Source: Eledone cirrhosa
Taxonomy: Eukaryota
Assembly: GCA_964016885.1 (NCBI GenBank)
Contig: OZ024744.1
Span: forward strand, 38,688,001-38,752,000
Direction: 5' to 3'
Length of the DNA: 64,000 bases
In this document: piece after piece, positions 2,505 through 40,239 of the stretch
How the letters are laid out: every line of letters starts with the position of its first letter
Numbering within the stretch: the stretch's first letter is position 1
Translations under genes and position numbers: made by a program
The notes under the pieces: model-generated
What the model was told of the DNA's origin: nothing
Database searches by the model: none
What the model saw: the letters and a program-made list of their open reading frames with translations, nothing else

Positions 2505-3037
2505 GAGCCGTGTAATATAATTGAATATACAAGAGAGATAAAACACAGATAAAAACATACATGTGTTCAAATCGTTAAGGACCAGGTTCGCTAGGGTGAA
2601 AAAAAAATACTAACTATGAATAATAGGGTTTGCCAGACTCAATTTAAAATAATAAATCAAGAAAAGAAATACAAACCGATATTGGGCAACTGCCATACAT
2701 CAATGCCATGTGCGTTATTTTATATTCGCACACTATTCAGTGTTCTGAGATACTTAGAAGTCAAGGGTTTACTAATTTTACATCCACTGATGAGCAAAGA
2801 ATTGGTAATTCCCTTCGCTAAAATTGCGAAACACCCTACCAAAATCTGTCTGGGTGTTAGGCAGTTGCCCAATATCGGTTTGTATTTCTTTTCTTGATTT
2901 ATTGTTTTAAATTGAGTCTGGTAAACCCTATGGTTAATAGTTACTATTTGTTTCACCCAGCGAATCTGGTCCCTTACGATTTGAACACATATATGTATAT
3001 ATCTGTGTTTATCTCTTTTTTATATTAAATTATATTA
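2505..3037. mobile_element. Old inverted-repeat element (~180-bp diverged arms) with a central hammerhead; PLE pLTR/retrozyme-like
   Basis: About 2510-2694 is a diverged reverse complement of about 2860-3037 (e.g. aaaccgatattgggcaactgcc / ggcagttgcccaatatcggttt). The right end runs into (TA)n. Confidence 0.75.
2780..2857 (+). ncRNA. Type-I hammerhead ribozyme candidate
   Basis: Stem I acatcca/tgggtgt; CTGATGA 2787-2793; stem II closed by gcaa/ttgc; GAAA 2828-2831; stem III aca/tgt; GUC cleavage triplet 2848-2850. Confidence 0.6.
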
Positions 3038-3057
3038 TATATATATATATATATATA

Positions 3058-4528
3058 TTGGAATAAATGCTCTGAAATAGCGATATATATGTGAATATAG
3101 ACATAGAATATTCGAAAATATTCTGTATGTTTATAATAAACATTTTGAAGACCTAATCGCTATAGAATAGAATACGTCACGTATTACAATTAGATTCTCG
3201 ATAAAAGCAAGGGAAGTAATCTACGCGTTTCATTCTTGTTAGAAATCATCAGGACTACATATCCAGTGCTTTTATCGAGAATGACACAGCTAGAGACTTA
3301 TAGAATACTTAGCTGTGTACAGGAACTGGTTTGAAAGAGCGGTTGCCGGTCCGGCAGAAATTAGAAATTGGAATAAATGCTCTGAAATAGCGATATATAT
3401 GTGAATATAGACATAGAATATTCGAAAATATTCTGTATGTTTATAATAAACATTTTGAAGACCTAATCGCTATAGAATAGAATACGTCACGTATTACAAT
3501 TAGATTCTCGATAAAAGCAAGGGAAGTAATCTACGCGTTTCATTCTTGTTAGAAATCATCAGGACTACATATCCAGTGCTTTTATCGAGAATGACACAGC
3601 TAGAGACTTATAGAATACTTAGCTGTGTACAGGAACTGGTTTGAAAGAGCGGTTGCCGGTCCGGCAGAAATTAGAAATTGGAATAAATGCTCTGAAATAG
3701 CGATATATATGTGAATATAGACATAGAATATTCGAAAATATTCTGTATGTTTATAATAAACATTTTGAAGACCTAATCGCTATAGAATAGAATACGTCAC
3801 GTATTACAATTAGATTCTCGATAAAAGCAAGGGAAGTAATCTACGCGTTTCATTCTTGTTAGAAATCATCAGGACTACATATCCAGTGCTTTTATCGAGA
3901 ATGACACAGCTAGAGACTTATAGAATACTTAGCTGTGTACAGGAACTGGTTTGAAAGAGCGGTTGCCGGTCCGGCAGAAATTAGAAATTGGAATAAATGC
4001 TCTGAAATAGCGATATATATGTGAATATAGACATAGAATATTCGAAAATATTCTGTATGTTTATAATAAACATTTTGAAGACCTAATCGCTATAGAATAG
4101 AATACGTCACGTATTACAATTAGATTCTCGATAAAAGCAAGGGAAGTAATCTACGCGTTTCATTCTTGTTAGAAATCATCAGGACTACATATCCAGTGCT
4201 TTTATCGAGAATGACACAGCTAGAGACTTATAGAATACTTAGCTGTGTACAGGAACTGGTTTGAAAGAGCGGTTGCCGGTCCGGCAGAAATTAGAAATTG
4301 GAATAAATGCTCTGAAATAGCGATATATATGTGAATATAGACATAGAATATTCGAAAATATTCTGTATGTTTATAATAAACATTTTGAAGACCTAATCGC
4401 TATAGAATAGAATACGTCACGTATTACAATTAGATTCTCGATAAAAGCAAGGGAAGTAATCTACGCGTTTCATTCTTGTTAGAAATCATCAGGACTACAT
4501 ATCCAGTGCTTTTATCGAGAATGACACA
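3058..4528 (-). mobile_element. Tandem array of 310-bp hammerhead-containing units (non-LTR retrozyme-like), left arm, ~4.7 copies
   Basis: gaataaatgctctg recurs at 3061, 3371, 3681, 3991 and 4301 (period 310). The reverse-complement HHR core tcatcag is at 3246, 3556, 3866, 4176 and 4486. Confidence 0.9.
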
Positions 4529-5940
4529 AGTCCTGATGATTTCTAACAAGAATGAAACGCGTAGATTACTTCCCTTGCTTTTATCGAGAATCTAATTGTA
4601 ATACGTGACGTATTCTATTCTATAGCGATTAGGTCTTCAAAATGTTTATTATAAACATACAGAATATTTTCGAATATTCTATGTCTATATTCACATATAT
4701 ATCGCTATTTCAGAGCATTTATTCCAATTTCTAATTTCTGCCGGACCGGCAACCGCTCTTTCAAACCAGTTCCTGTACACAGCTAAGTATTCTATAAGTC
4801 TCTAGCTGTGTCATTCTCGATAAAAGCACTGGATATGTAGTCCTGATGATTTCTAACAAGAATGAAACGCGTAGATTACTTCCCTTGCTTTTATCGAGAA
4901 TCTAATTGTAATACGTGACGTATTCTATTCTATAGCGATTAGGTCTTCAAAATGTTTATTATAAACATACAGAATATTTTCGAATATTCTATGTCTATAT
5001 TCACATATATATCGCTATTTCAGAGCATTTATTCCAATTTCTAATTTCTGCCGGACCGGCAACCGCTCTTTCAAACCAGTTCCTGTACACAGCTAAGTAT
5101 TCTATAAGTCTCTAGCTGTGTCATTCTCGATAAAAGCACTGGATATGTAGTCCTGATGATTTCTAACAAGAATGAAACGCGTAGATTACTTCCCTTGCTT
5201 TTATCGAGAATCTAATTGTAATACGTGACGTATTCTATTCTATAGCGATTAGGTCTTCAAAATGTTTATTATAAACATACAGAATATTTTCGAATATTCT
5301 ATGTCTATATTCACATATATATCGCTATTTCAGAGCATTTATTCCAATTTCTAATTTCTGCCGGACCGGCAACCGCTCTTTCAAACCAGTTCCTGTACAC
5401 AGCTAAGTATTCTATAAGTCTCTAGCTGTGTCATTCTCGATAAAAGCACTGGATATGTAGTCCTGATGATTTCTAACAAGAATGAAACGCGTAGATTACT
5501 TCCCTTGCTTTTATCGAGAATCTAATTGTAATACGTGACGTATTCTATTCTATAGCGATTAGGTCTTCAAAATGTTTATTATAAACATACAGAATATTTT
5601 CGAATATTCTATGTCTATATTCACATATATATCGCTATTTCAGAGCATTTATTCCAATTTCTAATTTCTGCCGGACCGGCAACCGCTCTTTCAAACCAGT
5701 TCCTGTACACAGCTAAGTATTCTATAAGTCTCTAGCTGTGTCATTCTCGATAAAAGCACTGGATATGTAGTCCTGATGATTTCTAACAAGAATGAAACGC
5801 GTAGATTACTTCCCTTGCTTTTATCGAGAATCTAATTGTAATACGTGACGTATTCTATTCTATAGCGATTAGGTCTTCAAAATGTTTATTATAAACATAC
5901 AGAATATTTTCGAATATTCTATGTCTATATTCACATATAT
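4529..5940 (+). mobile_element. Tandem array of the same 310-bp unit, inverted right arm, ~4.5 copies
   Basis: CTGATGA at 4533, 4843, 5153, 5463 and 5773. Reverse complement of the left arm. Ends in (TA)n. Confidence 0.9.
4813..4901 (+). ncRNA. Minimal type-I hammerhead ribozyme (representative copy; 10 cores in the array)
   Basis: Distal stem I attctcgataaaagca/tgcttttatcgagaat (16 bp perfect); proximal stem I gtagtc/gattac; CUGAUGA; stem II ttct-aaca-agaa; GAAA; palindromic stem III acgcgt; GUA triplet with predicted cleavage after 4873. Confidence 0.88.
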
Positions 5941-38414: not shown

Positions 38415-38482
38415 TTATTCCTTCTGACGACTGCAGACAGACGCAACATCTGTCTTCAAGAAACCACTGGTAAATGAAATAA
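38415..38482 (+). ncRNA. Type-I hammerhead candidate; decayed homolog at ~18310-18380 (minus)
   Basis: CTGACGA 38424-38430; stem II agacaga/tctgtct; GAAA 38460-38463; stem III acc/ggt; GUA; stem I ttattcctt/aatgaaataa. Confidence 0.65.
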
Positions 38483-39364
38483 TTATCTTATGTTGTTTAT
38501 TAGATAACTAAAAAATAAATATATATATATATACATGTGAGTGTGTGTATACATATATATATACATGCATGTGTGTATATATATATATATATATATATAC
38601 ATGTGTGTCTGTGTGTATATATATATATACACACACAGACACACATACACATACACACACACAGTCACATACACGCACAATCACAGGCACACACTCACAA
38701 ACATATACACACACATACATAAATGTTTATAACTGATTCAGAGCACTCGACAGTTTTTCTGGAGTATATTATTCAATGATATTAAATAAATGAGGCCGTG
38801 CTGGGGCATATATATATATTATATATATATACGTGTATATATATATATATATATATATATATATATATATATATATATATATATATATATATATATATAT
38901 ATAATATATAAGATCAAAAGATGGTTAAAAGAGTTCCATGTATTTTATTATGGGCATTTCAAAAACAAATATCATCATGCAATAATATTTGTGTTTTCAT
39001 CAGATAAAATAGGAAGACATGATATGAAGGTTAAAAAACAGTTGTGAATAGTGCAGTTTTCAATCAACATATTGCTTTATTGTACTACAATAAAACTCAC
39101 CTCCTACATATATATATATATATATAAATGTATATATATATATATATATATATATATATATATATATATATATATATATATATATATATATATATATATA
39201 TATATATATTTATATATAGATTTTGAGTTTATGTTGGTTGTATACCAACACCTCAGTATGCAGGCTGGAGCACTCGACGAAGTGCGCAGGTTGGTTTGGT
39301 TACTCCGGAGTAGTGTAAAATAAAGTTAAATAAAAGTCAAATGATTAAAATTTAGCTTCGTTTA

Positions 39365-39423
39365 TTACTGCTATATATATTTCAGTGACAGCCATCTTTG
39401 GCTGTGACCTCTTCAGGCAGTGT
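39365..39423 (-). ncRNA. Minimal type-I hammerhead with palindromic stem III
   Basis: Minus strand: actgc-CTGAAGA-ggtcacagcca-aaga-tggctgtcact-GAAA-tatatata-gcagt. Confidence 0.75.
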
Positions 39424-40239
39424 GAATTAGTATGGTATAGACAAGTACATATGTTGTTTAGGTGTATGATATTGTCAATACTCTGATATGCCCAGTTCCT
39501 TGCTGGGTTGTTAATTCACTGGGGAACTGGCGTCCACCTGGTTCCTTACCACATTTCCTTCGTTATATATATATATATATATATATATATATATATATAT
39601 ATATATATATATACATATATATATATATATATATATATATATATTTATTTATTTATTAAAATAACAGATAAAAGTTTAAGCAAAGAATCGCTTGATTGAT
39701 ATTTTTAGTTTCAGAAGATCCTGTTAAGGGTGAAAGCACCGATTCTTTGCTTAAACTTTAATCTGTTATTTTAATAAATAGTTGCTCTACCGTTCTTATA
39801 TATTTGATATATATTTATCCTTATCGAGCTCACTTTGGATTTTAGTCTTCAAATTTATTATTATTACTATATATATATATATATATATATATATATATAT
39901 ATATATATACATATACACAATGCTCTCACCTTGCTGGCCACCAATTTCTTTATTTCTTTATAAATGAAAAAATAAGAACAACAATTCATTAATCGACAAT
40001 CATGTTTAAAAGGAAGTTTTGATTGAAAAACAAAAGAAAGAAACGCGTAATTCGCGACATATTATTTTTTAATTCGTTCTTTCTTTATTTATTCGTTTAT
40101 TTATTTAGTGTTCTGTTCATTAAAAGAACAGACTAGCGTGGGAGTATTGAGTTGTGTAAGGTGTTGCAACGTATTCTATTGTTATCTATGTCTGTGTGTG
40201 TTTCTAATAGGGGGGTTGTGTGTACACAAGCATGCACCT

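Follow-up and report, generated by a model that had tools for sequence, protein, structure and literature searches.

Several Hydra-type families of Penelope-like elements (PLEs; designated A, B, C, D and F) and a non-coding hammerhead repeat of 310 bp (designated R310) were found as back-to-back insertions in a 64,000-nucleotide stretch of Eledone cirrhosa DNA (contig OZ024744.1, positions 38,688,001 to 38,752,000; hereafter the window, coordinates being counted from its first letter). We put the probability at roughly 0.7 that these insertions were made by two-ended target-primed reverse transcription of one RNA. The evidence supported an architecture that is biological, of PLE type and tied to (TA)n, and that extends to the non-coding hammerhead repeat.

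When the window was compared with itself by BLAST, inverted arms were found at all eight sites named in the original prediction, with arm identities of 76–100%. The arms were 100% identical, in 310-bp units, at the R310 site (3057–4528 and 4529–5942), 99% identical in family A (32423–34092 and 35924–37587), 97% in family B (18865–20113 and 21608–22875), 89% in a further family, E (2513–2694 and 2860–3037), and 83% in family C (23340–23956 and 29439–30036); the small sites at 15718 (15717–15895), 38030 (38078–38236) and 39650 (39650–39780) gave 83, 83 and 76%. In all eight pairs the left arm was minus and the right arm plus, as judged from hammerheads, open reading frames (ORFs) and family ends, so the predicted polarity held throughout. 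At six of the eight sites a run of (TA)5 or more lay within 8 nt of both outer ends; TA runs were dense locally (60 in 40 kb), and 3.9% of the non-run positions in 1–40000 were within 15 nt of such a run. The pair at 2505, whose left end adjoined (AG)n and lay 81 nt from TA, and the pair at 38030, whose ends were 249 and 59 nt from (TA)n, were the exceptions to the claim that both ends point out into (TA)n. A central fusion of truncated 5′ ends had also been claimed. The pairs were indeed inverted, but they were asymmetric, with an extra tail on one arm only, and the 32423 pair was centred on 35914–35923.

The genome (3.0 Gb, 1,796 contigs) was then searched with a single exact pattern per family, and the copy counts given below are therefore lower bounds. 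Neighbour orientations were counted among the first 100 matches listed per family, with neighbours within 8–10 kb. Among these matches, minus-plus neighbours outnumbered plus-minus ones by 33 to 6 in family A, 37 to 0 in family B and 22 to 0 in family F, whereas an unrelated dispersed control repeat, presumably SINE-like (short interspersed nuclear element), gave 4 minus-plus, 5 plus-minus and 10 same-strand neighbours and had TA at 3 of 30 ends. Thus the genome-wide excess of inverted pairs and (TA)n flanks, on which the original prediction had staked itself, was found, and the control repeat was without it. The wide range of arm identities, together with the unbiased control, pointed to biology, as had been argued. 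Each family had two fixed 3′ ends, about 70–88 nt apart in families A to F, and this two-end arrangement was the same in families A, B, C, D and F.

The R310 unit (310 bp, GC 34%, longest frame 59 amino acids) was repeated in the window as a left arm of 4.75 identical units on the minus strand (3057..4528), with a tailed end (unit phase 199) running into (TA)n, and a right arm of 4.56 units on the plus strand (4529..5942), with a tail-less end (phase 164–173) also running into (TA)n; the two arms met at a blunt junction (4528/4529). A type I hammerhead motif was predicted once per full unit (nine complete at this locus), e.g. at 4837..4879 (plus), with a CTGATGA core, GAAA and a self-complementary ACGCGT stem III. 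The hammerhead descriptor scan gave 15 matches, against 0–2 in each of 20 shuffles; Rfam at its gathering score found no hammerhead. The predicted fold of the RNA had a z of −3.2, and 60% was paired when it was folded as a circle. In none of the 51 loci was an R310 arm attached to an ORF. R310 thus resembled retrozymes lacking long terminal repeats (non-LTR retrozymes) in its tandem units of 150–450 bp, its GC below 50%, the absence of an ORF and the predicted type I hammerhead of every unit.

Genome-wide, the R310 core had 4,507 exact matches and its end patterns 1,410 (tailed) and 1,390 (tail-less), corresponding to about 1,400 loci. From the first 100 matches of each end pattern, 3 tailed and 2 tail-less ones were excluded as internal variants, and of the 97 true tailed ends that remained, 94 ran into TA (read by eye, with a pattern slightly favouring TA). 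On the first 200 Mb of contig C1, a tail-less partner on the opposite strand in tail-out order was present for 62 of 96 tailed ends, and the number of tail-out pairs with two like ends was zero. Fifty-one loci were read: the window locus and 50 others, 10 of them chosen by the core only and 40 by the tailed end. They comprised 47 palindromes, two single arms, one locus ending in N and one running off its stretch; among those chosen regardless of ends, 8 of 10 were palindromes. All 47 palindromes had one tailed and one tail-less end, and 44 had TA at both ends (background 14%).

Microhomology of at least 2 nt was present at 21 of 30 clean R310 junctions (18% expected), and 16 of 46 junctions had inserted letters. 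The inner ends were uniform over the unit (p=0.62), and ribozyme cleavage was rejected as the cause of the 5′ ends, as only 2 of 94 lay near the predicted cut. Arm lengths, from 0.2 to 27 units, were uncorrelated between the two arms and compatible with an exponential distribution. In the 31 loci with at least three unit pieces per arm (14 haplotypes), both arms carried the identical haplotype in 30; shuffling gave a mean of 5.0 and a maximum of 14. These results favoured the copying of both R310 arms from one template, and the R310 haplotypes and junctions together are better accounted for by two primings on a single RNA than by fold-back or by growth as a satellite.

In the reaction that we propose, a PLE enzyme would make a staggered cut of both strands in (TA)n, and both DNA 3′ ends would prime reverse transcription at two fixed sites on one RNA, with TA-like letters at the two start sites helping the priming. 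The cDNAs would stop at random, and end-joining by the host would then connect them. In the case of R310, a probably circular monomer RNA would be copied in repeated passes by a PLE enzyme working in trans, such a template best explaining the long uniform arrays. A more far-reaching version is offered tentatively, at slightly less than even odds: a PLE enzyme dimer would copy one 310-nt circular ribozyme RNA from both ends of a staggered (TA)n break, at two fixed sites, and so write a ready-made palindromic array, and the same one-RNA, two-primer reaction would be the general origin of inverted pseudo-LTRs (pLTRs) and tails in PLEs.

Two-ended insertion by PLEs might be right and R310 nonetheless be copied from linear read-through RNAs, or be grown by unequal crossover, with no circle involved. 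Arrays of mosaic composition (L036, L037, L114 and L129) and an in-register variant in L124 would agree with this, the minimal R310 hammerhead may cleave poorly, local amplification is discussed in parts of 10.64898/2026.07.22.740005, and the family A locus of the window shows palindromic donors to be transcribed again into linear RNA. Linear copying, however, can neither make arrays longer nor bring a new variant to fixation throughout an array, yet at 8 of 45 R310 loci every unit carried a variant that was absent from all the other loci sampled. The L124 variant was the only in-register unit variant common to both arms, whereas 12–25 are expected for linear donors, if these carry the observed variant load. 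The smooth range of arm lengths and a singleton divergence of only 6e-4 also spoke against it, and we regard this explanation as unlikely. Fold-back self-priming of a single strand, a hypothesis put forward for bdelloid PLEs in passages of PMC3846280, is more improbable still. It too would give both arms one haplotype and leave microhomology at the centre, but it cannot make arms that share no sequence, and tail-only arms without common sequence occurred in family A (8 of 36 small pairs), B (L133), C (L164) and D (L225 and L241). Moreover, the tailed R310 arm was the longer in 26 loci and the shorter in 21, and the short arm of L077 carried a tail missing from the long arm. There is a very slight probability that the palindromes arose as fold-back artefacts of assembly or library preparation, or are repeats that happen to lie side by side in a genome rich in TA: some arms were 99–100% identical and TA runs are dense, but the flanks differed on the two sides, the ends were never mirror images, other arms had diverged to as little as 76% identity and the control repeat had no bias. 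In the contigs of a public run, too, both R310 end types ran into TA; this run (X3) looks like DNA of the host and could be the very sample that was assembled.

Several points weigh against two-ended copying of one RNA, or against its extension to R310. The long arrays of L036, L037, L114 and L129 had repeated minority variants or mixed units and, with L124, fit a multimer template or later recombination rather than a pure monomer circle. The equal haplotypes of the two arms could stem from two RNAs of one donor locus, and the sample was selective, 40 of the 51 loci having been chosen by the tailed end and all 50 fetched loci lying on one contig. A target-site duplication (11–15 bp) was readable at one locus only, L034, the sole informative non-TA target. 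R310 would be linked to any one enzyme by its architecture and by a 36–38 nt hammerhead likeness to family F. Its tail was 26–37 nt long, shorter than the tails of about 70–88 nt in the Hydra-type families, and lacked the YYGAGY motif of six other families, and for this reason the family A protein proposed in the original prediction (33764–35713) was not upheld as the mover of R310. Finally, the family A protein was not recognised by Pfam (below the cut-off) or by a PDB sequence/profile search (one irrelevant hit), and the fold matches listed for its model were polymerases.

A search for an autonomous parent of R310 returned only the above likeness to family F (87–89%) and older relatives at 72–82%. 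Those at L098, L131, L169 and L180 were 73–80% identical to R310, one being an inverted pair and one a tandem. In L037 the central junction of the palindrome held a 272-nt GC-rich piece of another repeat (1899–2170), whose sole match was another stretch in L106 (88%), not a PLE. The central junction of a further locus (L093:4994–9718) was duplicated, which suggests a repeated template switch or a later duplication. In the public runs X1, X2 and X4, R310 was present as one 340-nt closed contig, which may be trace host DNA, since traces of family A were also present.

By motif, and not by tree, families A, B and C are assigned to the Hydra clade. The Hydra-type families had a single ORF with a reverse transcriptase (RT) and a putative C-terminal GIY-YIG-type endonuclease (EN), the latter called by motif. 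DKT was present in A and C, and B was truncated before the RW[K/R] and DKT region. The CxCx5C linker, CxxC and CxH were complete in A and B, while C was without the last linker Cys; CCHH was absent. The terminal repeat contained a hammerhead in A (type I, U3-A8 core), C (descriptor scan) and B (by eye), and all three families were inserted into (TA)n. The ORFs of B and C aligned with that of A at 34–47%, and those of B, C, D and F were 35–52% identical to it.

In the window, the left arm of family A (32426..35913, minus) had a tail-less 3′ end and an older inversion junction at 33725–33734, and carried as an antisense passenger a 5′-truncated Hydra-type ORF (33734..35713, plus) missing its first 57 residues. 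The motifs of this ORF were DKT (33902), YRDD (34595), CxCx5C (35267), a GIY-YIG-like stretch (35324–35377), CxxC (35561) and CxH (35645). The original prediction had taken 33764–35713 as an EN domain; the EN part (motifs VIYQC..YIG..R) would occupy about 35267–35653, and the frame as a whole is RT plus EN. The right arm (35924..37664, plus) ended in an 80-nt tail (37588–37666) running into (TA)n. The inner junction of the left arm was repeated in the right arm at 36282–36291, the plus-strand ORF broke off within its 3′ untranslated region at 35913, and a templated insertion (35914–35923) followed. These features mark the locus as second-generation, a palindromic donor having been read through and then copied once more.

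Type I hammerheads with a U3-A8 core (TTGAGAA) were predicted at 37479..37572 (plus) and, as a mirror copy, at 32526–32443 (minus), and the core was present in 20 of 21 matched family A copies. The type-SGC hammerhead has the block order cleavage site, GAAA, CUGAnGA, according to sections of PMC10085705. The hammerheads of R310 and family A fitted the type I order and not this one, and a permuted SGC hammerhead was not needed for family A; the window was not scanned for SGC motifs.

Family A is young and abundant, with 30,777 exact matches to a 31-mer genome-wide and 88 scored protein matches at 98–100%. Its window ORF was 98% identical to L079, a natural full-length copy of 719 amino acids. 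Full-length copies had RWR near the start, where most homologues had RWK (70% of 117 aligned); CxCx5C, CxxC and CxH were 96–99% conserved in the 117 homologues. An alignment-based model had a predicted local distance difference test score (pLDDT) of 94, and its fold matched RTs, telomerase among the top; a single-sequence fold gave a pLDDT of 32. As Pfam and PDB searches were blank, the GIY-YIG call for this protein rests on motifs. Most family A copies seen were 200-bp pairs. Of 36 small pairs, 22 had one tailed and one tail-less end, one was tail-less twice, none was tailed twice and 13 had a clipped end. Ribozyme cleavage was rejected as the cause of the 5′ ends here also, with 2 of 72 near the cut. 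Inner ends of the small pairs (L043–L072 and others) were piled up in a 14-nt zone (reference 118–131; 57 of 72), some 35 nt 5′ of the point where the ribozyme is predicted to cut, and partly biased by the search pattern; the cause is possibly a strong pause or run-off where transcription starts. A similar pile-up was seen in family B (pair spacing 179–192 in 14 of 37), again partly biased by the pattern. A tiny decayed family A pair (5986..6042; left arm read by eye) shared the TA run of R310, and its tail piece (6014–6045) matched family A. An older family-A-like inverted pair (350–545, arms 422–545; 70% to family A), which lies beyond the coordinates of the original prediction, was bordered by (TG)n on its left side and by a TA run on its right.

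The family B pair (18873..22957, Hydra-type) had a tail-less left arm reaching to 20113 and a tailed right end, with an inverted 47-nt EN piece (20119–20165) and a broken ORF fragment (20166–21245, plus) inside; its hammerhead motifs at 18972 (minus) and 22768 (plus) were read by eye. In the family C pair (23514..29960, Hydra-type), a long minus arm with a broken ORF (26383–28852) and an upstream terminal repeat (29041–29441) was joined by a tailed plus arm (29439–29960), and the descriptor scan placed a hammerhead at 29231 (minus). One family C arm was interrupted at 24934–25270 by an insert that resembles a miniature inverted-repeat transposable element, has inverted repeats at its termini together with an 8-bp duplication (GTATATAC), and is taken to be hAT-like. 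The family E pair (2434..3037) had its tail on the left and a full hammerhead (2787–2850, plus), and no link to an ORF was established. Exact matches genome-wide were at least 3,064 for B, 40 for C, 87 for D, 29 for E and 10,377 for F.

The small pair at 15712..15941, old and related to family F, and that of family D (39645..39867), with its tail on the right and a decayed hammerhead in the centre, consisted of 3′ tips of Hydra-type PLEs; a single minus arm of family F lay at 15037–15193. The third small pair (37964..38232) was old and family-B-like, with its tail on the left and no clean (TA)n flank. Because 2 of 20 family D loci, and L294 and L295 in family F, showed a connection with a Hydra-type ORF, the pairs at 15718 and 39650 are tips of coding families, and together with the 38030 pair, an old relative of family B, they are truncated tips and not separate parasites. 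Of the ribozyme-only parasites postulated originally, the 310-bp array is the one shown to be such, and the families that have an ORF each (A, B, C, D and F) do not require one enzyme system common to all.

YYGAGY was present in six dissimilar tails (37588–37666, 22876–22958, 29883–29961, 39781–39868, 2434–2512 and 15054–15122) and in none of 20,000 shuffles, although the motif was chosen after seeing the data; it is a candidate enzyme signal. When Pfam was run on 12 ORFs, GIY-YIG was found among the PLE ORFs only at 30157–31380 (plus), a fragment from another clade (~30% to Hydra-type proteins) that lay between TA runs and for which no inverted arm was found. Further hammerhead-like cores lay at 2211 (plus), 14551 (minus), 18750 (plus), 38424 (plus), 39003 (minus) and 39416 (minus), most with a TA run downstream; they were single arms of other families.

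Features of the window apart from these elements included 220-bp inverted repeats (99% identical) around a unique centre at 8082–9052, not in (TA)n and probably a DNA-transposon derivative, and two opposite copies of the control repeat, a family unbiased genome-wide, around a 23-bp AT-rich tandem array (16327–16856). Several RT ORFs or fragments of LINE type (long interspersed nuclear element) at 45662–60157, with RVT_1 at 58006–60117, and a LINE-type fragment with zf-RVT (13037–13660) were unrelated to the finding.

In LINE-1 twin priming, both target strands prime on one RNA and the cDNAs are joined by microhomology, the outcome being a 5′ inversion whose internal start varies; in the elements described here, by contrast, fixed and close starts give an inverted duplication. 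The Poseidon PLE of Anolis cuts and extends both strands in vitro, and two adjacent internal RT start sites define its tail; its target is AT-rich and a dimer is predicted (portions of PMC11167929). Poseidon belongs to a different clade, and those portions do not connect the two sites with the paired arms of a single insertion or with cargo that is non-coding. For bdelloid Penelope elements, excerpts of PMC3846280 report pLTRs as head-to-head inverted terminal repeats with an optional tail, an 8–10 bp target duplication and trans cargo between the pLTRs. That case was explained by self-priming on an antisense template, whereas our data favour two primings on the target. Circular templates were proposed earlier for both PLEs and retrozymes.

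The Hydra clade is described in sections of PMC8557442 as having a C-terminal EN, RW[K/R], DKT, CxCx5C, no CCHH, and CxxC and CxH around the E and N, with a terminal-repeat hammerhead, (TA)n as the insertion site, an inverted 5′-truncated copy and a tail on one of the two ends; the families listed include one from a cephalopod, and most elements are <3 kb. Families A to C shared the motifs, the hammerhead, the (TA)n, the inverted copy and the one-sided tail. Family A differed in its 3.5-kb repeat (tandem period 3,531 bp, above this soft size limit), its U3-A8 core and its tails (about 70–88 nt, against 30–40 nt), and was found in about 30,800 exact matches, mostly as 200-bp pairs in the copies seen. 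The U3-A8 variant is known from Cercyon PLEs, in a passage of PMC4209133. Inverted 5′-truncated copies had been put down to PLE habit, rightly, as for Hydra elements this layout, a tail on one side and a preference for (TA)n were already published. Animal non-LTR retrozymes are portrayed in passages of PMC7229834 and 10.64898/2026.07.22.740005 as non-coding tandem units of 150–450 bp, of low GC and with a type I hammerhead each, PLEs being the proposed mobiliser. R310 agreed in unit size, GC and hammerhead, but its arrays were two-armed, ended as PLEs do and carried a single haplotype in both arms, in contrast to the head-to-tail arrays of these passages, in which the word "inverted" occurred 0 times in PMC7229834 and once, in a reference title, in the other. 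No description of palindromic retrozyme arrays was found in the literature, though the supplements of these two papers could show such loci. Thus, the PLE part was already known, and retrozyme arrays that are palindromic, end like PLEs and agree between their two arms are apparently new, as judged from this literature search.

The origin of the inverted terminal repeats and one-sided tails of PLEs is stated as open in part of PMC8557442, and mobilisation of animal retrozymes by PLEs has so far rested on co-occurrence and terminal-repeat phylogeny. About 1,400 young R310 insertions carry a PLE footprint, and the paired layout in a non-coding repeat makes the suspected hitch-hiking route testable. 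With young, near-identical full-length Hydra-type ORFs and a defined 310-nt cargo, the reaction itself is directly testable.

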